42,708 bases of DNA from a phage. Position numbers and translations under genes: made by a program. The stretch is taken from sequence record QB031384.1; one strand, written 5' to 3'. Of the stretch, positions 1 to 42,708 are shown in pieces. The stretch's first letter is position 1. Every line of letters starts with the position of its first letter. The notes under the pieces were generated by a model. That model was not told where the DNA came from. It was given only the letters and a program-made list of their open reading frames with translations, and ran no database searches.

Positions 1-2
1 TA

Positions 3-3000: not shown

Positions 3001-3251
3001 TTAATAAAGGCAGCGCCTTCTGAGAACATGATGTAAAGAAACTCTTTAGCAGTGCGACGTACAATCAGTACAGTGCTCTCTGCATCGAGAGGCTTGTCAA
3101 AGCGGATGCGCGTATCACTGTCCCAAGTAAAATCAAATACCTCTTCACGGTTCACGTACAAGTAAATGTAGGAACGGTCGAGATAGTTGATCTCTACTGG
3201 GACAGTCTGTGCACCAGCTGGTAGAATTTGTTCTTGCCAGCTATAGGCCAT
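3..3251 (-). CDS. Tail fiber / tailspike: N-terminal T7 gp17-like adaptor, central Asp-box (BNR) beta-propeller glycosidase-like region, C-terminal intramolecular chaperone (peptidase S74-like)
   Basis: 1082-aa ORF. N-terminal region carries the tail-fiber motif FRIINLAAGKDATDAVNKSQLD. Central region has Asp-box-like motifs SGDDGQTWTM and STNSGLTWEY. C-terminus has TSDGTLK ... HFGVIAQQVRDVL, typical of autocleaving chaperone domains. Last gene of the structural module. Confidence 0.8.
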   Translation of the reverse strand: MAYSWQEQILPAGAQTVPVEINYLDRSYIYLYVNREEVFDFTWDSDTRIRFDKPLDAESTVLIVRRTAKEFLYIMFSEGAAFIKENLDTQNTQFLHLAQELVEGRSIEGFFGTINMNGFRIINLAAGKDATDAVNKSQLDEVSTRVDNIEGAFNGVTSSYPMYFNTTEPTKEFRIALNFTKAAVYINGVCQTPGYSYTIRDNTVILADPVPAGTHVFMRLGEDVLEGGYATTESLAALSNALTRIDGPEVNPEYYRPHWRDSFDVRGWGVAGDAVTDDTAALQAMLAAAVHNQYIDGKGLTFKVTTLPDLSRFRNAAFKYERLAGQPLTYVSEGYFEAGLTKITDTPFYNAWTQDKSFVYDNVIYVPFMAGERHGVQNLHVAWVRSGDDGQTWTMPEWLTPIHPNYASGVNYHCMSMGVSNNRLYMLVETRNLSDARMVRAEMWSRPMPYARRPTGGISTVAGDNFATVVLPMHGLKVGDTINFSNSGVTGVSGNTVVRTVVDANTITVPLTNAAASTLTNAGVTWSFGTRFWDCQWEVTLLPGIAYSTNADLAVTETHSFTALEGNAVAVGYHNGDVSPRRLGILYFPDVYNNPGVFERRTVSQEYANDASEPCIRYYDGELYLTTRGTSATSAGSTLARSTNSGLTWEYLRFPNKVHNSNLPFAKVGDELYIFSSERAANEWEADTPDNRYNGNYARTFMCKVNVRNWPSSLDEVQWFNVTDQIYQGNIVNSSVGVGSVCVKDGWLYYLFGGEDFLSPWSIGGNSAKRWYVQDGHPTDLYSYRIKVGPQQHVSRDFKYGAAPNRTVPVSMGVDGLRHVSAPMVFDESVQVNSLRVTGTGHNGIPAVRSEVLLDGDYGQIYKSVPTDNPAQQRLILGGGSGNSAASGAIVQLYGSNHSTPNRAVLYATGGVYTQNNLLPYNDSSVALGGASNRWSTVYAATGTINTSDGTLKTAPEEVESALLDAWEDVHIISFKWLDSLATKGDAARTHFGVIAQQVRDVLVTNGLMEPEATSCKYGFLCYDEYPEMVEYDEEGNVSVVTPAGSRWGIRPDQMFFIEMLYQRRELARLKEQVKSLAHNKG

Positions 3252-3253
3252 GT

Positions 3254-6200
3254 TTAATCTCCAAAGTTATTAATGATTGCACGGGTAGGCATGAACTCCT
3301 GCAAGAGCGGGAGACTACGGGACACGTCTTTAAGGTCTGCTTCTCCTGCTGCTACCTTCTGAATCAGTCCTAAGATGTTCATAGCATATCCAGTAGCGGT
3401 CAGGCTATGACGTGGGGACTGGTCGCTGAAGATATCAGTCACAAAGCTGAAGCCGCCTAGTATACTCATAGCTTTAACAGCTTCTGCGATAATCTTACCT
3501 TCTGATTCCTGCTTACCGTCAGCAGCGAAACGAGCTTGAGTAATAAGGTACATCAAAGGGAACTGATACGCAGCGAGATGGGCTAAGCCAATCCAGCCGT
3601 TATCACGGTATTCACGACGTAGAATCTTGTTAGTACCTGCTACAGCAAAGCTACCGTAACCAACTACTACGCGACCTACTGGACTGAACTGTGCAAAGTG
3701 AGAAGTCTCACCTACACGAATCTGCTGGATAACATGGTCCATTAGACGAGTACCAATAATCTCTAGCTGAAACTGTAAGTCATCTGGCAGTAAAGCATCA
3801 ACATCAGGACTAGCAGCAGCTTGCATACGCTTAGCAAGTTCAGGGTCAAGACCCCAACGCTGTAAACGCTTAGTAGCTTCTGCATCTCCGTTCAGCATGA
3901 GCTTAAGCTCATCCATTACGATACCTGCGTTAACGTTAGTCTGAAGACGATGCACCAGACCCATACCGTTTACGTGACGTGCAGCCTGACCGATGTTCTG
4001 AGTGATGTTAAACCAGCGGGAACTACGGGTAAGGTCTAAGTTATCATCAGCGTAAGAGTTCAACCAACGGAACCGAAGTTCCTTCTGAATGCTACCACGC
4101 AGGATAGAATCAAGACGAGCGGATTGACTAGCGTCTTTAGCGACAGCTGTAGCTTCCTTCCACCACTTTTCTTTCTTCATGCTGCGGAGTACTCGGGTCA
4201 TCCCGAACTCTTTCATAGCAAGCGCAGTATCTGCCAGCTGATACAAACCGGAGTTCTTAAGTACGGTGGCGTTGGCAAGGTTACCAGCAGCGCGGAATAT
4301 CTCCGGAACTTCTGAACCCTGAACAGGTGCGCCTACCATGAAGTCGATAGTATCATCTACATGCTTCTGATAACGGTCTGGGTCGCGTACTGTAGACTTA
4401 GCTGTGTTAATCATACCTTCCAGTGCATTCAAGTCAGTTACACCCGCGTATGCAAATGCTACACGACCTGATACACGGTTAGTATAACCTTGCATCTGCT
4501 TAGCTACGTCAGTATCCAGAATATCCGCCATACGCATAGCCTGGCCATTAACTATATACTCCTTCTGCAAGTCAAAGCGGTTACGAGTACGCAGGTTCTT
4601 AACCCGAGAAGTCTGAGTCGCTTCGCGTGCTACGTTAGTAGTAAGGAAGTTACGAATCTGGTCGTCTGCTACGCCTGCTGCACGCATTGCATCAACGATA
4701 ACTTCGTTGCCTACACCGCCCAGAATACTACGCCATGCCGGACCAGTCTGCTTAGACTTACCATCATAGATGCTTTCGAACATCTCACGAGCTACGCGAC
4801 CAGCAACCTCAGTTGTCATATCTGGGTAGATATCACGCAGGGCTTGACGGAACAGGTCGCGGTAGTCAGAAGCCTGACGCGCGCCAGTGTTAATCTGCTG
4901 ACGAATAGCATCGTAACTGTACGAGCGTGGGAAGTAGTAAGGACTACGCTTAATCTGAGAATCCACCTCAACCAGTCCAGACTTCTGGAGATGGTCATAC
5001 CATTTAGTAGCCCACTCAGAGTCTACATACGCCTTAACTAACGGGGCAATATCCTGAGGAGGGGTAGGAATCTCACGACCTGCTGTCTCCGCTGAGTATG
5101 CTTGGTCAAGGTATTGTGCAAGTTTAGACTCACGCTCACGACGAGCAGCTTTGAACTTGTTACGTTGCAAGAACGCATCCAGTAAACCAATACCATCTGC
5201 ACGCAGGGAATCAATAATGGCCTTCTCAACTACAGAGGCTGCACCATCAAGCTCTAACTGTAGGTTACGCTTATAGTCAGCTACAGAAGGACGACGTGCA
5301 CCTACTGCTGCGCCGTCAGCTACTAGCAGGTCTGCTAGGTCTTTAGAGCCTTCAGCAATGTTATCGTACAGGCTGAAGCTGCGAGCGAACGCCTTCTTAA
5401 AGCTATCTAACTGCTTAACTGCACCGTTAGCCGTATCGGCGAACTCACCATACTCAGATAATGCCTGAGACTTATAACGGGTAACACCACGCTCTTTAGC
5501 AGCTACATCCAGAAGCGCATCATAGGAATCAAGCACAGAGTTCAAGGCATTACCTTCTACCTTAGCACCTAATGCTTTAAGGATAGTTTGAGCAATACGA
5601 CGAATAGCACTAGCACCTTCTACTTCAGTATTACGCAGTAGCTTAACCAGACCTTTATCATCTGCAAGACCTGCAAGTAACTCTTCGTTACTGCTCAGGC
5701 TGTAGCGCATACGCGCATCAAGATTAGGACTAGTAAGAAGCTGCTCACGAATACGAGTAAGGTTAGTGGTAGCTTCCAATGCTTCTGGAGTACCAGACTG
5801 AATAGCGCGTACAGTAGCAGCATGTATAAGCTCATGCACAGCAATTTTAGCAGTATTAGAATCCAGGCCATTGATAGCATCTCCGTAGGTCTTCCAAGTA
5901 CGTGGGCCTTTCTTAGAGGCACGCAGGGTGACCGCATTGTTAACTAGGTTATAACGGCTAGAGATGTTAGTGTCACCTACGAGGTGTACAGGCACATCAT
6001 CTATGATACCGTCCAGTGAACGCAGCAATGCCTTCTGACCCTCATCCAGTACATCGCGTGCTAACAGGTTCTTAGTAACGTCACTTGCGCGTACACTTAC
6101 ACGAGCCTGCTGACCTTTCAGGATACGAATAGGTTTCTTAAGCGGGGTAGATTCTAAGGAATCAATCTTAGTAGTAAAGGCATCCGAGTCTGGAGCTGTA

Positions 6201-18581: not shown

Positions 18582-21032
18582 CTAACAGAAAAAGAATCTG
18601 CTACCCAGTACCTGCTTAAGGTCCAAAGAACCTTTAGCTGGTAACTCCAGCCCTTCTAAGTCTGCCCCACAAGCTACTGCCGCATCAGTAATCTCCTGAA
18701 GTACGTCATGCTCTGTGTACAGACGTAGGAACTGTTCGCGGATAGCAGAATGCATTTCATCTACATCGCAAGCGTGAGTAGCTACCGAGTCGTGGATAGG
18801 CATAATGTCTCCTGAGAATGCAGAGATAGTCATACCTAAGTGAGTAGCGTCTAAGCTGTGCACCCAATTAGGGGAGATGCCTGACTTAGCCTTACGCTTG
18901 TTGTTTACATTGTAGTTACGGTTGTACACCAGCAGGTGTGTCAGGTTCATGCTCTTAACAGAAACCTTAGTCTCTTCTGATTCAGTGTATCGGTTGATAA
19001 CCAGCCCGCCTAACGGAGTCTTCCATTGAAGGTGGTTGGCTGCTGGTACACGATAGCACAGTGACTGTACATATTTCATCGCCTCAGTAGCTGCTGGGTT
19101 AGCGTCCTCTACTGCTGCCTTCATGCGAGTACTCAGATATCCTGCCAGCTTGAACAGGCTGTACTCTTCCGTTCCTTCGTAACCTTCTTCCTGTGCAGAC
19201 TGAAGGATGTACTCGGAGCAAGAGCGCACAGTAGCCGAGTATACGTGTGTCATGCATGGACGTTTAGCCATGCTGCGGGTAATCTCGTTCCCACGCCAGT
19301 AGTTAGCCTGCACTACGAAGTCAGGATTGTCCAGGTCCATGATGACCTTAGCATCAGTACGGCGCTTAACGTCCATGTACATATCTGCTTTCTCTTCGTT
19401 ACCCTCCCAGAACAGGTTAACTAAACGACCACCTACTGAGTCACGCAGTAACGCGGCGAAGTGCTGCTGCCCCGAGTTGGTTGCATCCATAGCCACCGGA
19501 ATGCGTGATTCGTATGTTTCCGGGCTGCCAGAGTCAATAGCAGCAACGAGGTCGATGCAGGCTGCCAGAAAACACCACGGGCTGTCTGCACTCCTGAAAG
19601 CTTCTGCATTAAACGGATTTGATGCGACAAGTCGAATCTGCTCGATATTAGCATCAGTCCAAGCTGCACGCTTTTCGAATAAGGCTTTATCATAACCATA
19701 GCAGGTAGCGACGTGTACCTTGAGCCAAAACAAACCCCGCTCTCCCAGAGGCTTTGCCCGACTGAAGGAGAGCAAAGCTTTCTGCATGTCAGGACCCTGA
19801 GGGTGCAGGCTTGATTTGAAGTACAGGCGGTAGCGCCAGTCAACGCAGGTTGGGAAGTACAGTTCTTTCTCATCCTTAAACTCCTCGCAGAGTTGAACCA
19901 GTGTCACCATGGAACGCAACTTACTTACGCGAGTACGCTCTTGGATGTACCAGTTACGCATATTCATCTTCCAAGTCTGGAAGTCATCCATCTGGCGCTC
20001 GGTGTAATCCTCTTTAGGTACACCGTCCAGATACCACTCAGGTCTAGGGGCTGGGTAGGAACTAGGCATACCTGTCGTTACACCTTCACGACGTGCTTGG
20101 TTAAGCAGATTAAGTACTTCCTTGTTGATAACGTAAGGCACTTCCTGCGCCTTGTTCAGCATATCCTTCAGTCCCTCTGCCTGCTTGAATGCCTCTGCTA
20201 CTTCACGTTTCATTGCACGAGTAATCTGGTGATTATGGTAAGTACCGCGCTTGCAAGTGCTGCTTAGAAGGTATCCACCTGAGAACATGTCTACATGCTT
20301 CTGCGGAGGTACAATCATTGGGGGTTTAATCTCTACGGTATCTGCGTCCAGTACTAAATCGCCTAGTACCTCAGCTAATACTTCAGACGGTGCCAAGTAT
20401 TGTAGCTGGGTTGCGTCAGTGCTCTTATCCCACGTGAACAGGCCTGTTTCCCACACAGGTTGTAGGATTAATTTACCTACTGCTACACACTGAGAAGCGG
20501 ACCAAGGTTCATGCCCGTAGTGCACGTTCTCTGCTGAAGCACGTAAGGTCTTCATAATATGCGACTGACTTGTAGTGTTACGTTCTTTCAAGTACTCAAA
20601 TACACGATTCATATATGCGGGTGCAACTACTTCTAGCTGTATGCTAAGGACCTCGGCTTGAACCTGGCGCCCTAGGTTAGCCAGCAAAGCTTGTGCAGAT
20701 GTACGGCTTCCACCAGACTCTTTAAGGAAGAGGGAGTCAATGCATTTAGTGAGTGCCATTACAGCGAGAACGTCAGTAGGGACCAGACGGATAATGCTGC
20801 GGTACTTACCGCCGACGCCTGCGGTCTTCTGTACCTTCATCTCGTCAATGCCTTGAGCAACAGTATCATAGGCTGCTGCAATCATGCGACTTACCTTAGG
20901 CAGGCTGCTTAAGTTACCTGCTGCCAGTGCCTTCTGCACCAGCTCACGCGACTTGTTCAAGCTGCGCGTACGGTAATCTTTCTCTAACTGTAACTGGCGT
21001 TCTACTTTCTGTTCTAATGTTTCGTGTTGCAT
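18582..21032 (-). CDS. DNA-directed RNA polymerase, single-subunit (T7-like)
   Basis: 816-aa ORF. Motif A DATNSGQQHFAALLRD, motif B RSMAKRPCMTHVYSAT, motif C IHDS. GAGGG SD 4 nt upstream. Sits directly before the structural genes. Confidence 0.9.
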   Translation of the reverse strand: MQHETLEQKVERQLQLEKDYRTRSLNKSRELVQKALAAGNLSSLPKVSRMIAAAYDTVAQGIDEMKVQKTAGVGGKYRSIIRLVPTDVLAVMALTKCIDSLFLKESGGSRTSAQALLANLGRQVQAEVLSIQLEVVAPAYMNRVFEYLKERNTTSQSHIMKTLRASAENVHYGHEPWSASQCVAVGKLILQPVWETGLFTWDKSTDATQLQYLAPSEVLAEVLGDLVLDADTVEIKPPMIVPPQKHVDMFSGGYLLSSTCKRGTYHNHQITRAMKREVAEAFKQAEGLKDMLNKAQEVPYVINKEVLNLLNQARREGVTTGMPSSYPAPRPEWYLDGVPKEDYTERQMDDFQTWKMNMRNWYIQERTRVSKLRSMVTLVQLCEEFKDEKELYFPTCVDWRYRLYFKSSLHPQGPDMQKALLSFSRAKPLGERGLFWLKVHVATCYGYDKALFEKRAAWTDANIEQIRLVASNPFNAEAFRSADSPWCFLAACIDLVAAIDSGSPETYESRIPVAMDATNSGQQHFAALLRDSVGGRLVNLFWEGNEEKADMYMDVKRRTDAKVIMDLDNPDFVVQANYWRGNEITRSMAKRPCMTHVYSATVRSCSEYILQSAQEEGYEGTEEYSLFKLAGYLSTRMKAAVEDANPAATEAMKYVQSLCYRVPAANHLQWKTPLGGLVINRYTESEETKVSVKSMNLTHLLVYNRNYNVNNKRKAKSGISPNWVHSLDATHLGMTISAFSGDIMPIHDSVATHACDVDEMHSAIREQFLRLYTEHDVLQEITDAAVACGADLEGLELPAKGSLDLKQVLGSRFFFC

Positions 21033-26018: not shown

Positions 26019-26591
26019 TTACATTGCCCAATCAGGACGCTCACCCTTACCGCAGTAAAAGTCAATCAGGTCTAGTAAGCGCGGATAATACTTCAGCGAA
26101 CTCTTACCGTCCATTTCCGCAACCTGGCGCCTACTGAAGCTGCGCCACTCTGCTGCCGTATGCTGCTGACATCCTGCACGCACTATGTCCTTACAGATAC
26201 TAATGAAGTACGTTTCTCCGTATATAATGACAGTCTTGGCGCCGCGCAGGTCAGCGCGGCGCAGGTTAGCGCCGCGCAGGTCAGCGTAGCGCAGGTCAGC
26301 GTCGCGCAGGTCAGTACCGGTCAGGTCAGCGCCGCGCAGGTCAGCGATGCGCAGGTCAGCGTCGCGCAGGTCAGCGCCGCTCAGGTCAGCGCCGCGCAGG
26401 TCAGTACCGGTCAGGTCAGCGCCGCGCAGGTTAGCGTAGCGCAGGTTAGCGCCGCGCAGGTCAGCGTCGCGCAGGTCAGTGCTGCTCAGGTCAGCGTCGC
26501 ACAGGTCAGCGTCGCGCAGGTTAGCGCGGCGCAGGTCAACGCTGTGCAGTCTTCCTAACTTATATATTTCGCAGATTTCTTGATAGTTCAT
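26019..26591 (-). CDS. Pentapeptide-repeat protein 1 (about 21 tandem A(D/N)LxG-type pentapeptides plus 70-aa non-repeat C-terminal domain)
   Basis: 190-aa ORF with an unbroken run of [15 protein letters not shown] pentapeptides after the N-terminal cap [12 protein letters not shown]. Strand chosen because all flanking genes are minus-strand. Confidence 0.8.
26238..26549. repeat. Tandem array of about 21 copies of a 15-bp unit (CGCAGGTCAGCGNCG-like) encoding the pentapeptide repeats
   Basis: Periodicity is visible directly: gcgcaggtcagcg recurs every 15 bp, varying mainly at 2-3 positions per unit. Confidence 0.9.
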
Positions 26592-27650: not shown

Positions 27651-28838
27651 TTAAATTACCTCTTCCTCTTTAAAGGATTTACCAATACCACATTCGGCGG
27701 GAAACTTAACTTCAGACAGTATGCCAAAGTTAGGCCACAACTGTAGCATCCTATCACGGGCTCCTTCCATAACGTTTTTGATGAGCTTACCCGCCTTACG
27801 GGCCGTCTCTTCGTCAGCACAATCTATGTACAAACAGTCATGGACGGTAACCAGCAAACACCATTTACCCCCCATCCAATTGTCAGCTATACCAGCCCTC
27901 ATAGCCATTCCGGTTGCAATAAGCATAAGCAGGGAACCTGATCCTTGAAACGGATAGTTAGCCATCTCTGTGGGCTTAAAGTCCATTACCTGCTTACCTT
28001 CGCGCCACACCGGCTTCTGACGGAAGCGGTAGCGAGTACCGCAAGGCGTAGTGAAGTAGCCCTCGCGATAGATACGCCAGCTGCCGTCATCTGCTTGTTC
28101 ACGGCGTATAGGCTCCAGCAGCGCAGTACGGTTTACTTCAGCTGCAATGACATCCCTGTACTTAATAGACTCAGGGAATAGTGCCTCCTCGTTAGCTAAG
28201 AACTTCTCAGCGTCGGCTAAGCTAGCACCTGAGGCGAACGCCAGTCCTTTAGCGGATGCTCCATATTGTGCTGCGAAGCTGAAGGTTTTGATGGCTGTTC
28301 GCTTCTTCTTCCATCCTTTATGGTCCGGTGCATCCGGGTTATGGCAAAGCTCGTAGACTTCTTCATAAGGCATACCTTCTTGGAATGCTAGACGATAGCA
28401 GTGCATATCCGTACCGGCTTCAAGCAAGCTCAGTAATTTCTTATCACCAGTGATTACACAGCCCATTACAACCTCCATAGCTGAGTAGTCACACTGTGCA
28501 ATCATACCCTGCTCACCATAGCGGCTACGCAGAATCTGCTTAACCTTAGACTCACGCGGCAGCTGCTGCATGTTCGGGTTAGATGTTGACAGGCGTCCGG
28601 TAGTAGTTGAGCAGTGATTCGACCTGTGGTGAATGATGCCAGAACCATCTGCTGATGTAGGGATGACGTACGGCAGCATGCCCGTCACCTTACGCAGACT
28701 GCCATCCTTATTAGTCTCACGTACTTCATAGAAGCCGAGGTCCTTCTGGCGTGTAGTCATTTCTTTGTATGCTTTGAAGAAGTCTGAAGCTAACTTAGCC
28801 ATCTTGTTCCATCCCAATAAAATAATGTGCAAGGTCAT
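27651..28838 (-). CDS. DNA polymerase, family A: polymerase (fingers/palm) part
   Basis: 395-aa ORF with TGRLSTSNPNMQQLP, motif A-like CDYSAMEV, motif B-like RTAIKTFSFAAQYG and motif C VHD. Overlaps the upstream exonuclease-domain ORF by 44 nt in a different frame. Confidence 0.85.
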   Translation of the reverse strand: MTLHIILLGWNKMAKLASDFFKAYKEMTTRQKDLGFYEVRETNKDGSLRKVTGMLPYVIPTSADGSGIIHHRSNHCSTTTGRLSTSNPNMQQLPRESKVKQILRSRYGEQGMIAQCDYSAMEVVMGCVITGDKKLLSLLEAGTDMHCYRLAFQEGMPYEEVYELCHNPDAPDHKGWKKKRTAIKTFSFAAQYGASAKGLAFASGASLADAEKFLANEEALFPESIKYRDVIAAEVNRTALLEPIRREQADDGSWRIYREGYFTTPCGTRYRFRQKPVWREGKQVMDFKPTEMANYPFQGSGSLLMLIATGMAMRAGIADNWMGGKWCLLVTVHDCLYIDCADEETARKAGKLIKNVMEGARDRMLQLWPNFGILSEVKFPAECGIGKSFKEEEVI

Positions 28839-29940
28839 TCATTGCGTCCGTTCCTGTGCTGTACACAGGGCTACCATCCGCTAATGTTTGAGCACCTTTG
28901 TATTCACCGCGGTCTCCGTACTTCTCACGTAGAGACTGAGGTAGGTCCTGAATATTAACCAGCCCGTCGAAGCGGTACAGGCGTTCACCCCACTTCATAG
29001 CTTGCTCGTCAGTGTCTACTTTTATGAACTTAGGCATACCCTTATTACGCCCAGACTTATACACCCCGTCCTGTACTTCCTTCTTAATGTATTTAGGTGG
29101 GTCATAAGGAACCTTGCACTTGTACTTAACCATGCCACCATACACTAAAGCGGACATATGATAACCGCTATTCCAGTTAAACTCGAAGCCCTCTGGCAAT
29201 TCTGGCAAGAATGTCTGAAGTAACTCCCGCAGATTCCGAATAGCGTCCTCCTGCTCCTTCTGGTTTACGCGTGCTGTAGGCATATCAACGTACACGCCAT
29301 TGAACTCACAGTATGCCAGAGCTGCGACTGCCTCCATCCTTTCCCAGACCATAGGCATCTGTCCACGTTCCGCAAATACTGCGCATTGCCCGTAGAAGCA
29401 CAGCGCTGTGTTGACTATGTCACCGTTAGGCCCTGTTAAGTATTCATGTAGTAGCATAGGGTCAATGTCTGCTGTCAGAACCCCTTGCTGCCATAGTAGC
29501 TTAACGCCGTCGACTTTGTGTGACCCGCCATACTTAGGGGCAGTCTCATCTAGTGACGGGTAAAGATTCTGGAAGTCGCTGGCAATGTACTCGCCCTGCA
29601 TAGTATCAAAGACTCGACCTCCTCGTCTAAGGAACGACTCGAACTGCTCACGGGCAAAGGTCAGCGCCCAGCTAATCTCGTACGCTGCGTTGTGCGCTAC
29701 GATTAACCACGTATCATCCTGAATAGGTAGCCACTGCTTAGGGTCAGCTGCTAAGAAATCAGTTCGGGATTCATAGCGTACACTCTGCACCTCGCTGCAC
29801 TGTACAGTCCCATCCGGCATAGTCCTATCAATGCGGAAGCCTGATTCTACGATGTAGTTATCAGGGCAGTACGGAGTTGCGACCCCGCCGTAGTACGGAT
29901 GATTTTGAGTTTCAATATCCCAAATTAGAATGCTACTCAT
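28795..29940 (-). CDS. DNA polymerase, family A: N-terminal 3'-5' exonuclease part (separate frame from the polymerase part)
   Basis: Exo I motif WDIET near the N-terminus. The ORF track starts it at a TTG (29946); the ATG at 29940 overlaps the upstream small ORF's stop as ATGA. Ends 44 nt inside the polymerase-domain ORF. Confidence 0.8.
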   Translation of the reverse strand: MSSILIWDIETQNHPYYGGVATPYCPDNYIVESGFRIDRTMPDGTVQCSEVQSVRYESRTDFLAADPKQWLPIQDDTWLIVAHNAAYEISWALTFAREQFESFLRRGGRVFDTMQGEYIASDFQNLYPSLDETAPKYGGSHKVDGVKLLWQQGVLTADIDPMLLHEYLTGPNGDIVNTALCFYGQCAVFAERGQMPMVWERMEAVAALAYCEFNGVYVDMPTARVNQKEQEDAIRNLRELLQTFLPELPEGFEFNWNSGYHMSALVYGGMVKYKCKVPYDPPKYIKKEVQDGVYKSGRNKGMPKFIKVDTDEQAMKWGERLYRFDGLVNIQDLPQSLREKYGDRGEYKGAQTLADGSPVYSTGTDAMNDLAHYFIGMEQDG

Positions 29941-30089
29941 TTCCAATTACTCCGACGTGATTTATTAATGGCTGCCCGTACAATCATCTCGCTACTGTCC
30001 AGCGTGTAGCGCCTAACCTGCTTACGATTGTTAGCAATTGCTCTGATGACTTCGTAGTCTGCCTCAGTAATATCACTTTGCTTTAGCAT
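29937..30089 (-). CDS. Small basic ORF (50 aa), not in ORF track
   Basis: ATG at 30089-30087 preceded by GGTGAGGTG; stop overlaps the DNA polymerase ATG. Translation MLKQSDITEADYEVIRAIANNRKQVRRYTLDSSEMIVRAAINKSRRSNWK. Confidence 0.35.
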   Translation of the reverse strand: MLKQSDITEADYEVIRAIANNRKQVRRYTLDSSEMIVRAAINKSRRSNWK

Positions 30090-30234
30090 TGTTATTCACC
30101 TCACCTTTAAGGCCAGCTAGATGGGATTTAAGGCACTCGACTAACTCAACAATAGTATCCTCATCCAGTTCGAACATTCCTGAATCCCCCTGCTCCAACT
30201 CTATTAATTTTAAAGCTGCTTCATGTAATGTCAT
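30073..30234 (-). CDS. Small acidic ORF (53 aa), not in ORF track
   Basis: ATG at 30234-30232 preceded by a near-consensus SD, AGGAGGT, at about 7 nt. Translation MTLHEAALKLIELEQGDSGMFELDEDTIVELVECLKSHLAGLKGEVNNNAKAK. Confidence 0.45.
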   Translation of the reverse strand: MTLHEAALKLIELEQGDSGMFELDEDTIVELVECLKSHLAGLKGEVNNNAKAK

Positions 30235-30287
30235 TGCCTTACCTCCTAGTTAGTTGACACTGCGCCCCTTGCGAGACGCAGTAGCTA

Positions 30288-32813: not shown

Positions 32814-33350
32814 TTAGATACTAACCCAATCAGCGACGCGCAGGTCAGCGTCGCGCAGGTCAGTGCCGGTCAGGTCAGCGCCGCGCAGGTTAGCGCCGCG
32901 CAGGTTAGCGCCAATCAGGTTAGCGTCGCGCAGGTTAGCGCCGCTCAGGTCAGTGCCGCGCAGGTTAGCGCCGCGCAGGTTAGCGCCGTGCAGGTCAGCG
33001 CTGCGCAGGTCAGCGCCGCTCAGGTCAGCGCCGCTCAGGTCAGCGATGTTCAGGTCAGCGTAGCGCAGGTCAGCGCCGCGCAGGTCAGCGCCGCTCAGGT
33101 CAGCGCCGCGCAGGTTAGCGCCAATCAGGTTAGCGTCGCGCAGCTTAGCGTCGCTCAGGTCAGCGACGCGCAGGTCAGCGTCGCTCAGGTCAGCGTAGCG
33201 CAGGTCAGCGCCGCTCAGGTCAGCGCCGCGCAGGTCAGCGTCGAGCAGGTTAGCGCGGCGCAGGTCAGCGCCGCACAGGTCAGCGCCGCACAGGTCAGCG
33301 CCTTCCAAGGATTCTAACTTGTATTTATTACAGATATTGTCATAAGTCAT
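32814..33350 (-). CDS. Pentapeptide-repeat protein 2 (about 32 tandem pentapeptides; paralogue of 26019-26591)
   Basis: Unbroken A(D/N)L(R/S/C)G-type run that ends at the stop codon. Preferred start is the internal ATG at 33350 (GAGGT SD 8 nt upstream; cap MTYDNICNKYKL matches [12 protein letters not shown] of protein 1). The ORF track extends it to 33401. Confidence 0.8.
   Translation of the reverse strand: MTYDNICNKYKLESLEGADLCGADLCGADLRRANLLDADLRGADLSGADLRYADLSDADLRVADLSDAKLRDANLIGANLRGADLSGADLRGADLRYADLNIADLSGADLSGADLRSADLHGANLRGANLRGTDLSGANLRDANLIGANLRGANLRGADLTGTDLRDADLRVADWVSI
32827..33302. repeat. Tandem array of about 32 copies of the same 15-bp unit (CGCAGGTCAGCGNCG-like)
   Basis: Same 15-bp periodicity and unit sequence as the array at 26238-26549, on the same strand. 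Confidence 0.9.
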
Positions 33351-33360
33351 ATTAGTAACC

Positions 33361-33597
33361 TCAGTTAATTTTAATATTAAAACGTGCACAATACCCTTCA
33401 AGGGTCATCCCTACTTTAGCTGCTTTAAGACTGTAAGCTAACTTAAGAGCTTCCTTAGCGTCATGCTCACGAGCCAGCTTCTCAATCGTTACTTCATCAT
33501 TACGCATCAGAATCATTTCGGGGTTCCGGTTAATCATTTCTGCATCTCCAGTTTGAAAAGGGCCATTGCAGCGTTCCAGGCGAAACGCGGGTTGCAT
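33361..33597 (-). CDS. Hypothetical protein (78 aa)
   Basis: ORF-track ORF in the early/middle region. No motif recognised. Confidence 0.45.
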   Translation of the reverse strand: MQPAFRLERCNGPFQTGDAEMINRNPEMILMRNDEVTIEKLAREHDAKEALKLAYSLKAAKVGMTLEGYCARFNIKIN

Positions 33598-36080: not shown

Positions 36081-36135
36081 CAACTATTTTCAATTATTTC
36101 ATTCAGCGTAGTAAAATCTCGCACTATTAATAACA

Positions 36136-36909
36136 CTAACAAACTTCAGTGTCCTTACCTACTGCCTCAGATTGTAAGCGGACTAGCTCAATCTCTATCT
36201 CCTCCCAACTCTTAGAAGAGTAATCAGAATCTTCATACTCATCGCTAGTCATCCACTTACTATAGCGCTTGATACCATACTTCGTACGCACTATAGGAGT
36301 AGTATCTAATCCTTCACAATGGTTATTAGGATACGCTACTGAGCAGTTTAACCCGCCTAAAGAACCTTCAGCTATATCTATAGCTAAGCCTAAGCGTGCT
36401 TCCTTACCTCCAACTATACCATCACTATAAGGATACTCTGCACCTGCATTAACAGTACGTATAAAGTTAAGCTCATAAGCCCATATCATGTCAGCAGCAG
36501 CGTAAGGTGCTATAACAGCAGCTACACTACGCAAAGCCTTACTGAGCCTCCTAGACTCTGTACCACTACAACTACAGTACTTCTTAATACTGGCAGGAGT
36601 ATAGTCTGGTAGAGTCTTAGAGAGCCATAGCAGTTGTTCTATCTTCCCAATGTCCTTACTACTCCAGTCCTTAGTAAGCGCTACGGCAGCTCCATATAAA
36701 GCAAGAACATCAGCAGGTACTGTATCTATATCCTTACCTGTAAGATACGCAGACAACAGCGTAGAGTCAGCCTGCCTGTACTCTCGCAGCTGCTTACGCT
36801 TAGCTGTTATCTCCTTAGAGCTTTGAACTACAGCACCAGTAACTTGATTAACCCAACCATTTCTTCCCTGCTTCCAGAGATTACCGTTTACATCTATCTT
36901 AGTAGCCAT
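36136..36909 (-). CDS. First early protein (257 aa from SD-supported ATG), function unknown; acidic C-terminus
   Basis: The ORF track starts at 36924, but the second ATG (36909) has a GAGGT SD 6 nt upstream. It is the first gene after the putative genome end; C-terminus is acidic (DEYEDSDYSS, EEIEIE). Confidence 0.55.
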   Translation of the reverse strand: MATKIDVNGNLWKQGRNGWVNQVTGAVVQSSKEITAKRKQLREYRQADSTLLSAYLTGKDIDTVPADVLALYGAAVALTKDWSSKDIGKIEQLLWLSKTLPDYTPASIKKYCSCSGTESRRLSKALRSVAAVIAPYAAADMIWAYELNFIRTVNAGAEYPYSDGIVGGKEARLGLAIDIAEGSLGGLNCSVAYPNNHCEGLDTTPIVRTKYGIKRYSKWMTSDEYEDSDYSSKSWEEIEIELVRLQSEAVGKDTEVC

Positions 36910-37093
36910 CCTATACCTCTGCATGTAGTAAAAACTCGCACTATATATATAACAGTACTTAGTTCATTGACTCACCTGATTGTTAAAGAACTACCTATAC
37001 TACCTATAATATCACAGCGCTAACCCTGCATCAAGCATTGCACAGCCTGGGAGCAAAAGAGGTAAGCCCGGAGGCATAGCAGCGGCATGCAGC

Positions 37094-37187
37094 AGAGATA
37101 CAGTAGAGATACAGTACTGAACAAGGTGCTGAACAAAATAGGCAAAAGCATCTCAGAGCATCTCCCTGTGCTCGACAAAATAGGCAA
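37094..37187. repeat. Cluster of short direct repeats in the non-coding putative terminal region
   Basis: agagatacagt is tandemly duplicated (37094-37115); ctgaacaa occurs twice; acaaaataggcaa occurs twice 42 bp apart; agcatctc occurs twice. Confidence 0.5.
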
Positions 37188-37354
37188 GACTAACCTCTCC
37201 CGCACCCTCAACAGAGAGCGCAGAGACAGCCAGCCAAGCCAGGTCCTGCCAGAGATACGCAGAGGCACCCCCTACCCTCCCTCCAGAAGATTCCCAGAGG
37301 CCGCCCCTACGGGGGGAACAGCGCGTTGGTCGGGTGAGGGAGGGCCTCGTGTGA

Positions 37355-37391
37355 GTATAATAAATTCAAGGTGCTTGTTTACACGAGCACC
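37355..37391 (-). terminator. Putative rho-independent terminator after the last gene (tailspike)
   Basis: On the minus strand: stem GGUGCU/AGCACC (37370-37375 paired with 37386-37391), 10-nt loop, then UUGAAUUUAUUAU. Stem is short and the U-tract is interrupted. Confidence 0.4.
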
Positions 37392-37416
37392 CTGATGCTT
37401 CTCAGGTACATCCCCT

Positions 37417-39162
37417 TTAGTTATTGCGTCCTGTAAGAAGTACTGCATGATCATACGTGTGCTGCACCCCATCCAGCTGCATGCACAGACCTATTAACTG
37501 ACCGTTACTGCTGCCGGAATAACTAGCAGGAGCATCAAACTGACCTGAGATACCGCGTCTATCCAGGGCATCTGCACGAGCAACCCAACTGTAGTTACCT
37601 GGAGCAGCACTACGCTGTACGCCCGACCCAGCGGGTAAAGTAAAGCTAAGCTGTTTAGGGAAGCTACAGCGTAAGTTCAGAGGAGGTGCACCGCCATCTT
37701 CGAAGAACAATGCATTCCCTGAGCTGGTAGCCCAGTTAGAAGGGAATACTTCTACAGTACAGTCGCTGAAGCTCGTGCCAGGACGAAAGTACATGAAGCT
37801 GTAAAGTTCTGAGCTAGGGTGGCGCATCCTGATACTGATGTTGCAGCGGGTCATGCTTGAGATACGTTGTGTTTCAAACAAGTTCAGTCCGGTACGAGTA
37901 CCAGTATTAGTATCGCCGATGATGTTACTTGCATCCCAATTGAAGCGTTCTACCTGAACAGTACGGGGAGACGGTAACTCCGAGACCATAGCTTGTTTAA
38001 CATCGAAGAAGTTATCCTGGAACACTATGCCCTGAATACTACCGTTCATAGTAATGGCTGCGCTCAGGCTACGGCTGCGGTCTACAATGAAGCTACAACC
38101 ACGTACAGTAACATCATTAATGAGATACTGGCTTGAGTCGGAGTTAGAGTCCTGAAAGAAGTCTACGAAGCTGCACATACCCGGGTGGTTACCTGAAGTG
38201 AACCGACAATTCTCTACAGTAAAGCCGTTAATATGCGTAGTAGCTACTGCATCTGGACCTGCTGCAAAGATAACAACCTGACCTGATACGTCCCCAGTTA
38301 CCCCGGACATAACAGAGTTGTAAAGGTACGTACCAGCACCCTCTGACTCTGCGCCGTGCAGTGCTACATAGCAGCCGCGGGTATATCCTGAAATGAAAGA
38401 ATCGCGATAGTACGTATTATGCTGGTGCAGTTCTACAGTAGCAGCAATTACACGTGCACGGGCAGAATTAGCCCGGAATGTACAGCCTGTGACACCACTA
38501 AATGGTGCGTTTACATATACAGTACTGTGGTCACGGTTTACATCGCTCTGAATCAGGTTAAGGAACCGGCAGTTACGTACATGCGTATCTGAGCCGTACC
38601 CGTTCCAGCCAATAGTAACGCCCCATGTAACGTCCCCGTTCTGGAAGGTAATGCCATCTACGCTACAGTTATACCCGCGTCCGAATGCGATACCATTGCG
38701 GAGATGCCCGGCGTTAGCGAAGTCGTAACCGCCAAAGTCAATAGTACCCTCGCCATAAATATGGCAGTTATCAAGGTTGCCCGAGTTAGCTGGGTTACCA
38801 TCAGTAAAGCCTACGAAGACTTGGAAGGAACTATTAGCTAAAGCAGGGCCTACTTTAATAGTACCGTCCAGTTTAATACTTACATTGCTTTTAAGCTGGA
38901 TAAGACCGCTATGCCCTGAAACTGGGCCAGTGCTAATGCTGTTCAGCGTCCATGTACCTTCCGGGATAACTAGTAAACCGCCACCTACTGACTCTATGTA
39001 ATCAATAGCTGCCTGCATACCTTCTCGGGCATCAGCTACGTCGGGAGTAATCCACTGGCGCAGGTTATACCCATTATCATTGAGGTAGGTGCTAAGCTGT
39101 AAACCTGAATGGTCTACATGCAGCGTATCCAGTTCGACTTCAACTAACTTTACTAAGGTCAT
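37417..39162 (-). CDS. Tailspike / polysaccharide depolymerase with right-handed beta-helix (pectate-lyase-like), no N-terminal particle-anchor domain
   Basis: 581-aa ORF with N-terminal REGMQAAIDYIESVGGGLLVIPEGTWTLNS, then Gly/Asn/Thr-rich repeats typical of parallel beta-helices. No gp17-like adaptor region. Last gene before the putative genome end. Confidence 0.7.
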   Translation of the reverse strand: MTLVKLVEVELDTLHVDHSGLQLSTYLNDNGYNLRQWITPDVADAREGMQAAIDYIESVGGGLLVIPEGTWTLNSISTGPVSGHSGLIQLKSNVSIKLDGTIKVGPALANSSFQVFVGFTDGNPANSGNLDNCHIYGEGTIDFGGYDFANAGHLRNGIAFGRGYNCSVDGITFQNGDVTWGVTIGWNGYGSDTHVRNCRFLNLIQSDVNRDHSTVYVNAPFSGVTGCTFRANSARARVIAATVELHQHNTYYRDSFISGYTRGCYVALHGAESEGAGTYLYNSVMSGVTGDVSGQVVIFAAGPDAVATTHINGFTVENCRFTSGNHPGMCSFVDFFQDSNSDSSQYLINDVTVRGCSFIVDRSRSLSAAITMNGSIQGIVFQDNFFDVKQAMVSELPSPRTVQVERFNWDASNIIGDTNTGTRTGLNLFETQRISSMTRCNISIRMRHPSSELYSFMYFRPGTSFSDCTVEVFPSNWATSSGNALFFEDGGAPPLNLRCSFPKQLSFTLPAGSGVQRSAAPGNYSWVARADALDRRGISGQFDAPASYSGSSNGQLIGLCMQLDGVQHTYDHAVLLTGRNN

Positions 39163-39171
39163 ACCTGTTCC

Positions 39172-39735
39172 TTATTTAGGCATAGCAGCTACTGCTGCTT
39201 GCATAGATTTAAATTCGTTGCCAATAGCTTTGGCTTCCCACTTACGGCGCTCCCAGAGCCCGTAGCAGACCTTATTAGGTTTACCCTTTACCAACATACT
39301 ACAGTCGTACTTAACCCCGTTACGGGTGATATAGCGCCAGCTAAGTACAGCCTTAGCTGCACCTTTAGTATCGCCTTGCATTAGCTTTCGCTTCGCGGTA
39401 CTGTTCTTGAAACCTGAGATACCGGTGTTATAGGTCATGTCCAAAGCACCAAGAATCTGTACGTCCGTAAGGGACATAGGAAGCCCGTCAAGAGCCTTAG
39501 CATGCTCCCCAGCTGATTGTATCAGTTGTTGCTTACACTGCGTCAGAGTGGCTGTATCGCCCATCCTAACGCCCTTAGTCTCACCATAGCAGATAGTAGG
39601 TACTCCGGCGGAGTCCTTGTATGCCTTAAGGGAGAGACCTTCGTTATGCTGTATCACCATAGCGATACTGGCGCCCAGCAGGGAAGTCCCTGCCAGCGCC
39701 GCCTTAACCTTGTTGCTTATGCTCATAGTATTCAA
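39172..39735 (-). CDS. Endolysin, lysozyme family (GH24-like) with N-terminal signal or signal-anchor-release segment
   Basis: 187-aa ORF with catalytic-region pattern EGLSLKAYKDSAGVPTICYGET (E ... D ... T) preceded by the weakly hydrophobic N-terminus KVKAALAGTSLLGASIAMVI. Confidence 0.8.
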   Translation of the reverse strand: MNTMSISNKVKAALAGTSLLGASIAMVIQHNEGLSLKAYKDSAGVPTICYGETKGVRMGDTATLTQCKQQLIQSAGEHAKALDGLPMSLTDVQILGALDMTYNTGISGFKNSTAKRKLMQGDTKGAAKAVLSWRYITRNGVKYDCSMLVKGKPNKVCYGLWERRKWEAKAIGNEFKSMQAAVAAMPK

Positions 39736-39952
39736 GGCCCTTCTCTAAGGCTCGCTCCTTGAGCTTGTACTCTTTGTGCCTGTAGTATGCGTTCCATGCA
39801 AAGGTCAGTACAGCTACAACCGTACCGACTATGAAGGAGATTGTCCCCCAGTTCCAAGACATTATGTTTGCCATCCAACCGCCGCCCATAGTAGCGACTG
39901 ACACATTCGTTCCTACACGGGTGATAGTTTCCCCGTTAATTGGTAGACTCAT
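39704..39952 (-). CDS. Putative holin (82 aa from SD-supported internal ATG; the ORF track extends it to 40027)
   Basis: Hydrophobic helix WGTISFIVGTVVAVLTFAW followed by a charged C-terminus, immediately upstream of the endolysin. The ATG at 39952 has AAGGA 9 nt upstream. Confidence 0.4.
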   Translation of the reverse strand: MSLPINGETITRVGTNVSVATMGGGWMANIMSWNWGTISFIVGTVVAVLTFAWNAYYRHKEYKLKERALEKGLEYYEHKQQG

Positions 39953-40361
39953 CGCTTTCGTCCTTAGTTCTTCCGAGTTTGCGGAACAACAGGACAATGA
40001 TGAGGATTGCGATTGGAACCGCTGCACCTGCCAGTCCTGCTAGAATTATGCTAGTACCGTCATTGTTAACAACCTGTACTCGCTCCGTGTTAATGGTTCC
40101 AGTAGTAACTGAACTGGACTGCTTCTTGGTAGAAGTATCCAGCGTGCCTACGTTAGAATCTTTAATTGATGTTTCATTGTCCGTGCTGGAGTCGGACTTG
40201 CCATTAAGGCCTACAGTTTGTTTCGTATTCTCTGCGCCAGCTTGCACGGACAGGTCTGGCTTAGAGCCAATAAGACCTGTCAATGCAGAGGTCGCTGAGC
40301 AGCCTACCAAACACCCTGTAAGAGCCGTAGCGAGGACTAACCCAGCGACCTTAGCCCGCAT
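39936..40361 (-). CDS. Lipoprotein with C-terminal transmembrane helix (unimolecular-spanin-like)
   Basis: 141-aa ORF. N-terminal signal with lipobox LTGC, a Ser/Thr-rich middle, then C-terminal TMD IILAGLAGAAVPIAILIIVLLF and a charged tail. Confidence 0.5.
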   Translation of the reverse strand: MRAKVAGLVLATALTGCLVGCSATSALTGLIGSKPDLSVQAGAENTKQTVGLNGKSDSSTDNETSIKDSNVGTLDTSTKKQSSSVTTGTINTERVQVVNNDGTSIILAGLAGAAVPIAILIIVLLFRKLGRTKDESDESTN

Positions 40362-40543
40362 CAGGCTGCTGCTTTAACGGCAGCGATAGCCGCTTCCAGA
40401 GCCGCTACTTTAGCATCGTATGCAGCGCCTACAGAGTTCACATCCAGAGGCTGGGTCATAATCTTATAAACCTCCTTAGCGTGAATAGTAAGTTGACGCT
40501 GAAGCTCAATCTTCTGAGCGGGGGTAGCTTTTGCAATTGCCAT
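40361..40543 (-). CDS. Hypothetical protein (60 aa, Ala-rich)
   Basis: ORF-track ORF between terminase large subunit and the lysis genes. No motif recognised. Confidence 0.4.
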   Translation of the reverse strand: MAIAKATPAQKIELQRQLTIHAKEVYKIMTQPLDVNSVGAAYDAKVAALEAAIAAVKAAA

Positions 40544-40569
40544 GTTATATCTCCTTAATTAATATTTAA

Positions 40570-42393
40570 TTAATATTTGATGCGTGCGCTCGCACCACGC
40601 TTGCGCTTGTGCACCATTGACTTCTTCCAGCCCATAGGGTTATCCATAAAGTCTAACGCCTTCTTAAGCTGGTCCTTCTCTGCTGCCTGCTTCTCATCCT
40701 CTACGAGGTGCGAGTTCAGTTCAGCTACGAGCATACTAATAGCGTCTGCCCGGTCATCCTTCGCTAGGCTACCACGGTCATAAGTAATACCAGATAACTG
40801 CTGGAACGCACTGTAAAGCCAGCGCTTATCACGACTGTACTGCATACAGTATTTGATATCGTCTTCCAGCGCCCTAGCGTGCACTACAAAGCGGTGACGA
40901 CGCGTAACAGGGGAGATAGTATCAATGATACGTTTCTCCTTCTGGGACGTGTTATAACCGCCCCTGACACCAATGCCGGGCATACTACGCTCACGCAGAC
41001 GGTTTATAATCAAAGATTCTACCGTGCCGTGACCCATGTTACGCTCGACAAAGATGTCAGTAATACCCATCTCGACCGCTAGGTCAATCAAGGTATCTAC
41101 GTTCTCTGTGCTAAGCCCACCCTGCAACCCGCCTACAGTAAAGAGGTGGATGTAAGAGCTAACTGCACCACCGGCTGCAAAGGATACTTCATCACCACCG
41201 TTACCAGCAGGGTCAAGTACCAGCAGCTTGTGCTTGTAGTTGAGCATATGCTCCCCTATGTGGCTCGGCACATACAGTTGCTGACCTCGAATACCTTCGT
41301 GTTCCTCTCCGTAGAGATAGCGCTTATCAGCCATGTAGTTCAGTCGGTCAGGTGCTGCATCATGCGAGCCAGTGTAAATCAAAGCGTCACTGAGTTTAAT
41401 CTTGGTACGTAGTGCATCGGACATGGTTGTGTCGAGCATATACTGTAATTGGAACCCTTCTGGGCCGAAGTCCAGTTCCTTCTCAATCAAGGCTTCCTCG
41501 TTATAACGTCCTTTATCGGTGCATTCACCTAACGTACCATCCAACCCAAAGCCTGTTTCTTTATACCCTGCGTCGATGAGGGTTTGAATATACGGGGCAA
41601 GGGTTTCTCCGTAACGCTCGCGCATCTCCTGATTAGGAATACGTCCAGGCCATACACGTACCTCGAAGCCACGACCCGGCAGTGTCTTGTAGATACTCTC
41701 CTTAGTCTGAGGAGTACCGAGGTACAGGGTATCACCGTGCGTACAGATAGCTGCAAAGTCTTTAGAGATGTTCAGTAACTGCTCACGCATTGTCTGCGTC
41801 AGGCCGTTCTTGGTTGTTTCAATATCGTCAGGAATCAGGAGGTCAGCACGTTTACCCTGAAGCTGCGCGGTAATACCAACACAAGCAATAGAGGCTGACT
41901 TATCCAGAGGTTTCAAATCGCAGTTAATGTCGTACCCTTCATAAGAGGTACGGTCACCACGGGTAGGGTCTGCTTTCAGGTAACAGAGCAGAGGCCACGT
42001 CTCAATCATACGAATGACAAGCGTAGCTACTTCGGATGCCTGCTTCTCACCGCCAGAGACGATAAGAATACGTGTACGCTGGTCTTGAATAAGCCGCCAT
42101 ACAGCGTACAGGGCAGCCAACGTGGATTTTGCTTCGCCTCGTTGTGCAGCTACCATGCGCTTACGCGGACCGTGCTGCATGAAGTCAGCAATATCACGCT
42201 GCATCTCCGTCAGGTCAAAGCCTAGGAACTTCATACCTAAGTATGCAAACTCCCGGAAGTCCTTCAGGGTAACAGCCATCATCAGTGCTACTTCCTCGCG
42301 CTGGTCCTTAGGGATAGTGCGGGGACTGTCATTCATTACTGTAGTGCGTTGAGATATTAGTTTCAATCGGTTCAGTGTAGTAGGACTAATCAC
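40570..42393 (-). CDS. Terminase large subunit (T7 gp19-like)
   Basis: 607-aa ORF (T7 gp19 is about 586 aa) with ATPase-like N-terminal half and nuclease-like C-terminal half, directly after the small-subunit gene. Confidence 0.85.
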   Translation of the reverse strand: MISPTTLNRLKLISQRTTVMNDSPRTIPKDQREEVALMMAVTLKDFREFAYLGMKFLGFDLTEMQRDIADFMQHGPRKRMVAAQRGEAKSTLAALYAVWRLIQDQRTRILIVSGGEKQASEVATLVIRMIETWPLLCYLKADPTRGDRTSYEGYDINCDLKPLDKSASIACVGITAQLQGKRADLLIPDDIETTKNGLTQTMREQLLNISKDFAAICTHGDTLYLGTPQTKESIYKTLPGRGFEVRVWPGRIPNQEMRERYGETLAPYIQTLIDAGYKETGFGLDGTLGECTDKGRYNEEALIEKELDFGPEGFQLQYMLDTTMSDALRTKIKLSDALIYTGSHDAAPDRLNYMADKRYLYGEEHEGIRGQQLYVPSHIGEHMLNYKHKLLVLDPAGNGGDEVSFAAGGAVSSYIHLFTVGGLQGGLSTENVDTLIDLAVEMGITDIFVERNMGHGTVESLIINRLRERSMPGIGVRGGYNTSQKEKRIIDTISPVTRRHRFVVHARALEDDIKYCMQYSRDKRWLYSAFQQLSGITYDRGSLAKDDRADAISMLVAELNSHLVEDEKQAAEKDQLKKALDFMDNPMGWKKSMVHKRKRGASARIKY

Positions 42394-42408
42394 CGCATAT
42401 TCCTTTTA

Positions 42409-42708
42409 TTATAAGATTCCAGCTAATGGGTCATCAGGGTCTGCACCAGCTTTCGCCAGTAGCCCCTGCGCCCGTGCCTTACGTTTCTCTGCTAACTCAT
42501 CTTGGAACTCATCACGTAGCTCCTGCATCTCCGTAGAGTCTGCATCTGCTGTAACGTCGTTGTCCTTAAGGAATTTAGCGATTACTGATTTGTCAGCAGC
42601 AGGCATAGGAAGCTCTTCATCCTGAGCCTGCTTTAATTCTGAGATGAGTACCTCGGTGAACATCTTGTGAAGTTCAGCGAGGCGACTCTTTGTAGCCGCC
42701 TTAGCCAT
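42409..42708 (-). CDS. Terminase small subunit-like protein (T7 gp18 analogue)
   Basis: 99-aa acidic, helical ORF immediately upstream of the large subunit. Its ATG is the last 3 nt of the window, so its SD would lie across the window junction. Confidence 0.55.
   Translation of the reverse strand: MAKAATKSRLAELHKMFTEVLISELKQAQDEELPMPAADKSVIAKFLKDNDVTADADSTEMQELRDEFQDELAEKRKARAQGLLAKAGADPDDPLAGIL

Follow-up and report, generated by a model that had tools for sequence, protein, structure and literature searches.

The window analysed here, meaning the whole stretch of 42,708 nucleotides of phage DNA, carries all of its long ORFs on the minus strand. It is 97-99% identical in DNA to Escherichia phage vB_EcoP_P64441 (P64441) across most of its length and ~80% identical to vB_EcoP_PAS7 (PAS7), the exemplar of the genus Cepavirus; both phages belong to the Autographivirales, subfamily Slopekvirinae. 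The two ends of the window are joined in P64441 (window 39152-42708 and then 1-5766 correspond to P64441 33638-42960), and the assembly is therefore complete and circularly closed, having been opened at the start codon of TerS. The window is the whole genome, closed and permuted, of a Slopekvirinae (KP34/phiKMV-like) podophage of E. coli. Its minus-strand gene order is phiKMV/KP34-like: the RNA polymerase gene (18582..21032) comes late within the early/middle region and is followed by the structural genes and then by a 1082-aa fibre, TerS, TerL, the lysis genes and the terminal tailspike. The 1082-aa protein (window 3-3251, minus strand) lies in a block 99% identical in DNA to P64441, where its homologue is annotated as an endo-N-acetylneuraminidase, so that, with the terminal tailspike, the phage has two receptor-binding or depolymerase proteins. 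The DNA polymerase appears as two adjoining minus-strand ORFs (27651-28838, 395 aa, and 28795-29946, 383 aa), and P64441 likewise annotates two DNA polymerase CDSs.

TerL contains the T7 terminase RNaseH-like domain PF22530 (3.4e-28) and TerS matches PF11123 (2.6e-19), with 74% and 66% identity to maturases B and A of KP34, respectively. Judged by sequence, the two make up a T7-type terminase related to that of KP34, and for this reason the T7 packaging scheme is the most likely one for this phage.

Between the tailspike gene and the first early gene there is a region of 492 bp (36925-37416), bordered by:

37417..39162, minus strand: tailspike gene (phrog_20900, E 7.5e-284)
36136..36924, minus strand: first early gene (from the ORF list)

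The true start of the first early gene is probably its second ATG, at 36909, which has GAGG upstream. The first-pass annotation had set the region between the terminal tailspike and the first early gene, and both the ORF list and the phrog_20900 match bear this out. Its description of the region as the only long one without a convincing ORF was slightly overstated: this is the longest noncoding stretch of the window once three mechanically called ORFs are disregarded (two on the minus strand, of 82 and 66 aa, the shorter of which overlaps the end of the tailspike gene, and one of 102 aa on the plus strand). The next-largest gaps measure 290, 272, 253, and 219 bp, and there is a further gap of 341 bp (29947-30287) where the relative P64441 has small genes.

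The tandem and dispersed short direct repeats noticed in the same annotation are real, repeated 8-, 9-, and 10-mers covering more bases than in any of 500 dinucleotide shuffles. Genome-wide, the repeat content of the region ranked just after that of two pentapeptide-repeat genes. The main repeats are:

36990-37007: tandem direct repeat, ACTACCTAT x2
37090-37116, plus strand: 11-bp tandem repeat, CAGTAGAGATA x2.5
37126-37145 and 37168-37187: 20-nt direct repeat pair
37253-37275 and 37288-37310: 23-nt direct repeat pair

Read on the minus strand, the 11-bp tandem is GTATCTCT(A/G), which recurs at 37258->37250. It is missing from P64441 and is therefore a variable, slippage-type repeat. Slippage-type repeats have been reported in T7-like Yersinia phages, within and just inside the terminal repeats, and more generally for T7-like phages in the stretch that separates the terminal repeat from the first promoter (PMC5923468); the 11-bp tandem and the doubled ACTACCTAT behave like these. 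The two pentapeptide-repeat genes themselves (26019-26591 and 32814-33401, minus strand; 190 and 195 aa) are made up mostly of 15-bp tandem arrays, with ~20 and ~31 copies, and their P64441 homologues are annotated as pentapeptide-repeat proteins. In this small podophage, they may be DNA mimics or anti-defence factors.

Predicted left end and the elements around it

A sensitive blastn search with the region matched 189 phage records. Window positions ~37298-37395 aligned to the annotated terminal repeats of KP34, KpV41, KpV475, SAA231, KPPK108.1, and AttikonH1, the matched Drulisvirus features being labelled right or left direct repeat, LTR, or short direct terminal repeat. The window also aligned to the repeat of fHe-Kpn01, for which restriction analysis, ligation of fragments followed by Sanger sequencing, and PhageTerm showed blunt termini and a repeat of 222 bp (PMC7291057); both boundaries match those of fHe-Kpn01 and KP34. 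Five of these seven annotated or experimental direct terminal repeats (DTRs) start with CCTCACCC, that of KP34 starting one base earlier and that of KPPK108.1 one base later, and the sequence ...TTATTA(G/T)ACTCAC... is found upstream of the seven starts. By this motif, the left end of our phage maps to 37339 (range, 37338-37340). The motif occurs once in the genome, and the left-end and right-boundary motifs are both contained in one unit of DTR size. The features at this side of the region are:

37395->37366, minus strand: imperfect palindrome or terminator-like hairpin, just past the tailspike stop (-19.5 kcal/mol, z = -3.5)
37366->37340, minus strand: conserved junction element AATTTATTATACTCACACGAGGCCCTC, directly upstream of the predicted left cut
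37339->37332, minus strand: predicted left end, CCTCACCC
37314->37304, minus strand: palindrome CCCCGTAGGGG, within TTCCCCCCGTAGGGGCGG, ~25-35 nt inside the left end

A terminator-like hairpin had been claimed for the region, and the RNA fold at 37395->37366 confirms that one is present. Its core, GTGTAAAC, is invariant among the E. coli-type relatives, and in 13/13 Slopekvirinae junctions the distance between a palindrome core (GTGTAAAC, GTCTATAC, or GTGTATAT) and the CTCACCC of the left end is exactly 46 nt, also where an extra gene separates the tailspike from the repeat. In a covariation test, 73% of cells were paired, a value equalled in 46-61 of 500 shuffles. The tail of the hairpin, TTGAATTTATTAT, falls below the T-run criterion of our scan for an intrinsic terminator, and the stem is broken in P64441, with the breakpoint of a tailspike swap at 37384. 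The constant spacing and the invariant "loop" sequence speak for an element that is recognised as DNA; a terminator acting purely as RNA is less likely.

The junction element AATTTATTATACTCACACGAGGCCCTC is single in the window at ≤3 mismatches and has been kept in Klebsiella Drulisvirus and in the E. coli-type relatives, and we consider it a candidate terminase recognition or positioning signal. In phiKMV and SP6, a AATTTTGATAT box resembling that of the junction element precedes the left end by 25-29 nt. The junction motif TTATTATACTCAC, which resembles the core of the T7 promoter, was ruled out as a general phage RNA polymerase promoter since it is present in a single copy in the window, P64441, and KpV475; the nearest partial match, at 17480, has only 10 nt in common with it.

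Inside the left end, the folding energy of the CCCCGTAGGGG palindrome was not significant (z = 0.16), nor was that of the right-boundary region. An element of the form TCCCCC-R-TAGGG, ~25 nt inside the left end, is common to the window, T7, SP6, phiKMV, and KP34, and the window thus holds both conserved left-end elements, this one and the CTCAC at the end itself. The elements on the two sides of the left end compare as follows:

AT-rich box upstream of the left cut: window, AATTTATTATA, 27 nt; KP34, AATTTATTAGA, 27 nt; SP6, AATTTTGATAT, 25 nt; phiKMV, AATTTTGATAT, 29 nt
Element ~25-40 nt inside the left end: window, TTCCCCCCGTAGGGG; KP34/fHe-Kpn01, CCCCCATAGGGGG; T7, CCCCCATAGGGGG (positions 26-38); SP6, TCCCCATAGGG; phiKMV, TTCCCCCGTAGG

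Some Drulisvirus junctions carry additional genes. In five IMG/VR contigs (L018, L020, L021, L025, and L026), an ORF starts (ATG...) right after the junction motif TTATTAGACTCACGCGAGG, ~7 nt before the repeat start position of the other junctions. In SAA231 (L006), a gene annotated as an HNH endonuclease separates the tail fibre from the repeat; there and in fHe-Kpn01 (L029), the repeat is preceded, with the 46-nt spacing retained, by a diverged version of the junction element, AAATTATTATACTCACCCTTGGGCCTC. Together, the junction-associated ORFs or HNH gene and the divergent element look like a homing cassette targeting the packaging junction.

Predicted right boundary and the TTGCCT-type motifs

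In six of the seven Drulisvirus phages (fHe-Kpn01, KP34, SAA231, KpV41, AttikonH1, and KpV475), the annotated repeat stops 1-3 nt before a CTT(G/A)C(C/T)TATTTTG-type motif, CTTRCYTATTTTG. The exception is KPPK108.1, annotated with a repeat of 244 bp where the motif implies ~331 bp. In this record (L012/L007, OK583892) the annotated end lies ~87 bp short of the boundary motif and the flanks are nearly identical to those of SAA231; the annotated repeat may be too short. The boundary motif is identical in the E. coli-type relatives PAS7, ECO104 4-5-2, and P64441 and near-identical, ending in TATTTTT, in the metagenomic contigs L033 and L032. The 414-bp repeat of phiKMV also stops 1 nt before such a motif, ending in ...GGTGCGGGAGTGGCTAG, followed by CCTTGCCT. 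The corresponding stretch of the window, GGTGCGGGAGAGGTTAG and then TCTTGCCT, shares 22/25 bases with the phiKMV boundary. By the Drulisvirus rule, the repeat in the window would end at 37192, and by the alignment with phiKMV, at 37190. Copies of the motif were found at four places:

37188->37176, minus strand: first copy, CTTGCCTATTTTG, abutting the predicted right boundary and invariant in four E. coli-type relatives
37146->37134, minus strand: second copy, TTTGCCTATTTTG, within the 20-nt repeat pair 37126-37145/37168-37187
37066->37054, minus strand: third copy, CTTACCTCTTTTG, inside the conserved block GGCTTACCTCTTTTGC
36076->36064, minus strand: fourth copy, CTTACCTGTTTTG, in the next intergenic gap, overlapping the sequence TTGACT-16-TATACT

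The pattern TT[GA]CCTnTTTTG has only these 4 minus-strand sites in the window (37187, 37145, 37065, and 36075), all in one orientation and all within left-end noncoding DNA. The first copy stands where the motif is also found in Drulisvirus and phiKMV, and in phiKMV three TTGCCT copies come immediately past the repeat. The signals found right after the repeat boundary are:

Window, CTTGCCTATTTTG
KP34/fHe-Kpn01, CTTRCYTATTTTG
T7, ATCTGTT (repeat of 160 bp)
SP6, ATCTGTT (repeat of 174 bp)
phiKMV, CCTTGCCT

ATCTGTT is the strictly conserved heptamer of the class II pause site at concatemer junctions. It has four sites in the window and none within 36900-37450, and the T7 heptamer was accordingly rejected as the boundary signal here. 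The class II pause site has been described (bioRxiv 10.64898/2026.02.12.705533), and in the literature searched we found no report of conserved terminal-repeat boundary motifs in phiKMV-like phages. The TTGCCT-type motif might be the counterpart of ATCTGTT, acting in pausing or positioning and marking the end of the repeat, with the palindrome at 46 nt and the AT-rich box setting the left cut. We put forward this two-signal rule tentatively and with considerable doubt; the actor at the TTGCCT-type site could be the phage RNA polymerase or the terminase. If true, it would predict repeat boundaries from sequence alone in phiKMV-like and KP34-like phages.

Candidate promoters of the first early gene

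Several promoter-like or conserved sites lie between the motif copies and the first early gene, and one lies beyond that gene:

37034->37006, minus strand: predicted sigma-70 promoter, -35 TTGATG (37034->37029), 17-nt spacer, TG-A, -10 TATTAT (37011->37006)
36988->36969, minus strand: conserved block CTTTAACAATCAGGTGAGTC, downstream of this promoter, in 6/6 full-length E. coli-type junctions
36954->36942, minus strand: extended -10 candidate TGTTATATA (36954->36946), overlapping TATAGT (36947->36942)
36080->36053, minus strand: TTGACT-16-TATACT, in the gap past the first early gene

Of these, the site at 37034->37006 is the best candidate for the role of first early promoter. It scored 9/12 plus TG in the consensus scan, and its -35, spacer, and extended -10 keep their positions in P64441, ECO104 4-5-2, L033, and L032 and, less strongly, in PAS7. 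From these data, it is most likely the first early host (sigma-70) promoter. The first-pass annotation had proposed TGTTATATA for this role. The sequence is indeed present at 36954->36946 on the minus strand, but it is unconserved as such in relatives, and the promoter scan missed it because of its poor -35, the site at 37034->37006 being better. L033 and L032 carry a TATAGT-like hexamer ~25-35 nt before the first gene, and P64441 has it as AATAGT. A second promoter at TGTTATATA/TATAGT, close to the first gene and weaker than that at 37034->37006, is possible. For the conserved block CTTTAACAATCAGGTGAGTC, no promoter geometry, RBS, or Rfam match fits. Near the left end, no sigma-70-like site scores higher than TTGACT-16-TATACT (10/12).

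Predicted placement of the physical ends

On the minus strand, the layout runs from the tailspike stop (37417) through the hairpin (37395->37366) and the junction element (37366->37340) to the predicted left end at 37339, then through the predicted repeat to 37190-37192, the TTGCCT-type motifs and slippage repeats, and the promoter at 37034->37006 to the first early gene. The repeat itself is:

37339->37190/37192, minus strand: predicted direct terminal repeat in a single collapsed copy, ~148-150 bp (by homology to Drulisvirus and phiKMV)

The physical ends of the genome very probably lie in 36925-37416, which would make this region the concatemer junction in a podophage of the T7 supergroup (Slopekvirinae) whose genome was assembled as a circle. 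The first-pass annotation had suggested that the ends lie here, together with a single collapsed direct terminal repeat, and it gains support from the homology to annotated and experimental DTRs and from the T7-type terminase. A right boundary at 37190-37192, to within a few bases, seems rather likely. The ends are predictions from homology, motif positions, and terminase type in a collapsed assembly; the precise bases cut in this phage, like the functions of the flanking motifs, are inferred. In related podophages, homology of the repeats is an accepted basis for assigning termini (PMC6775973). Several deposited boundaries may have been set by homology to KP34 and so would not be fully independent. 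A search for contigs of the same phage ending at its termini gave no match on record for the first early protein, and TerS was found only on a 2-kb contig. The P64441 and PAS7 records are circular and carry no terminal-repeat annotation, and the PAS7 paper has nothing on termini.

The predicted 148-150 bp is shorter than the annotated Slopekvirinae repeats examined (214-268 bp) and near the 160 bp of T7. Applied to the relatives, the same boundary logic gives ~148 bp for P64441, ~146 bp for L033, ~200 bp for PAS7 and L032, and ~227 bp for ECO104, the differences among E. coli-type relatives being due to insertions inside the repeat.

A close parallel is found in the Drulisvirus repeats (KP34, 216 bp; fHe-Kpn01, 222 bp; SAA231; KpV41; KpV475; AttikonH1), which likewise lie between the last tailspike and the first early gene. 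Shared with them are the left end CCTCACCC, the upstream TTATTA(G/T)ACTCAC, whose palindrome core stands at a distance of exactly 46 nt, CCCC-N3-GGGG ~25 nt inside the end, CTTRCYTATTTTG just past the right boundary, and a homologous terminase. However, the Drulisvirus repeats are longer and the middle of the repeat cannot be aligned, the distance from repeat to first gene is ~270-280 bp here and ~1,060 bp in KP34, and our phage has E. coli as its host and belongs to a lineage closer to Cepavirus/PAS7 and P64441.

With phiKMV (Krylovirinae), the window shares the right boundary, GGTGCGGGAG(T/A)GG(C/T)TAG and then (C/T)CTTGCCT, with a TTGCCT array following. In phiKMV, TTCCCCCGTAGG also lies ~24 nt inside the left end, and an AT-rich box ~27-29 nt upstream of the left cut. 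The phiKMV repeat is, in contrast, nearly 3x longer, its left end begins with TCCCGACTCC, and it comes from another subfamily and host. The likeness to T7 extends to repeat length, to (T/C)CTCAC at the extreme left end, to CCCCCATAGGGGG at positions 26-38, to same-orientation short repeat arrays just inside the repeat (CCTAAAG in T7), and to a short conserved signal right after the repeat boundary, with host promoters next. Where T7 and SP6 have ATCTGTT at the boundary, the window has the TTGCCT-type motif in its place, and the phage RNA polymerase promoters that flank the T7 junction (phiOL/phiOR) have no identified equivalent here.

The repeat could also be longer than predicted, with the same left end and a right end past the second or third TTGCCT-type motif (~37130 or 37050), which would give 190-290 bp. 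Such a length would suit the annotated Slopekvirinae repeats, the window does have three motif copies in series, and the annotated boundary of KPPK108.1 breaks the first-copy rule. Yet SAA231, which also has two motif copies, has its annotated boundary at the first, the 22/25 match with phiKMV falls on the first copy as well, and insertions inside the repeats of PAS7, ECO104, and L032 explain the difference between 148 and ~202-229 bp with the boundary unmoved. We therefore regard a longer repeat as improbable.

Two other explanations would remove the termini from the region altogether. It might be an ordinary regulatory intergenic region, with a terminator and early promoters, in a phage that uses headful packaging or whose ends lie at another place, and its likeness to terminal repeats would then be merely inherited. 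The terminator-like hairpin and the promoter-like sites would fit this, as would the circular records of the relatives, but "circular" in deposited records is an outcome of assembly and not of experiment. Considering further that the terminase is of the T7 type and shares 74% identity with the enzyme of phages whose repeats have been demonstrated, and that elements at both repeat boundaries keep a fixed spacing across subfamilies, this explanation is very unlikely. That the gap codes for small proteins or for a structured RNA instead of holding termini is scarcely credible. It does contain the mechanical ORFs of 82, 102, and 66 aa, and one Drulisvirus record annotates hypothetical proteins within its repeat; but the 82-aa ORF is GTG-started, low-complexity, and Leu-rich, an alignment of four relatives across the gap is rich in indels, the three ORFs had no family match in PHROG, and their coding potential was rejected on this basis, as was a structured RNA on the basis that the gap had no match in Rfam at E≤1.

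With the ends placed at 37339 and ~37190, packaging would proceed by analogy with T7. Replication would give head-to-tail concatemers with one repeat copy per junction, and the TerS/TerL terminase would recognise the conserved flanks of the repeat and yield blunt ends at these two positions. The repeat would be duplicated at maturation, so that each virion would have a copy at both ends and a predicted DNA length of ~42,857 bp. After injection, the host RNA polymerase would begin early transcription from the promoter ~160 bp inside the left repeat.

A collapsed terminal repeat and an early control region are ordinary for KP34/phiKMV-like phages, and none of these results alters what is known of T7-like DNA packaging. 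They do show where to open and annotate this genome and those of its close relatives P64441 and PAS7. Conserved from the Slopekvirinae of Klebsiella and E. coli to Pseudomonas phage phiKMV, the boundary motifs offer a sequence-only rule for placing ends and concrete targets for work on concatemer processing beyond T7.

A comparison of the window with P64441 also showed that the entire tailspike gene (37385-39151) and the first early gene or genes (36090-37008) have been swapped. The breakpoints of these swaps lie on either side of the conserved terminal-repeat block (37157-37384), where the two phages share 97.8% identity.
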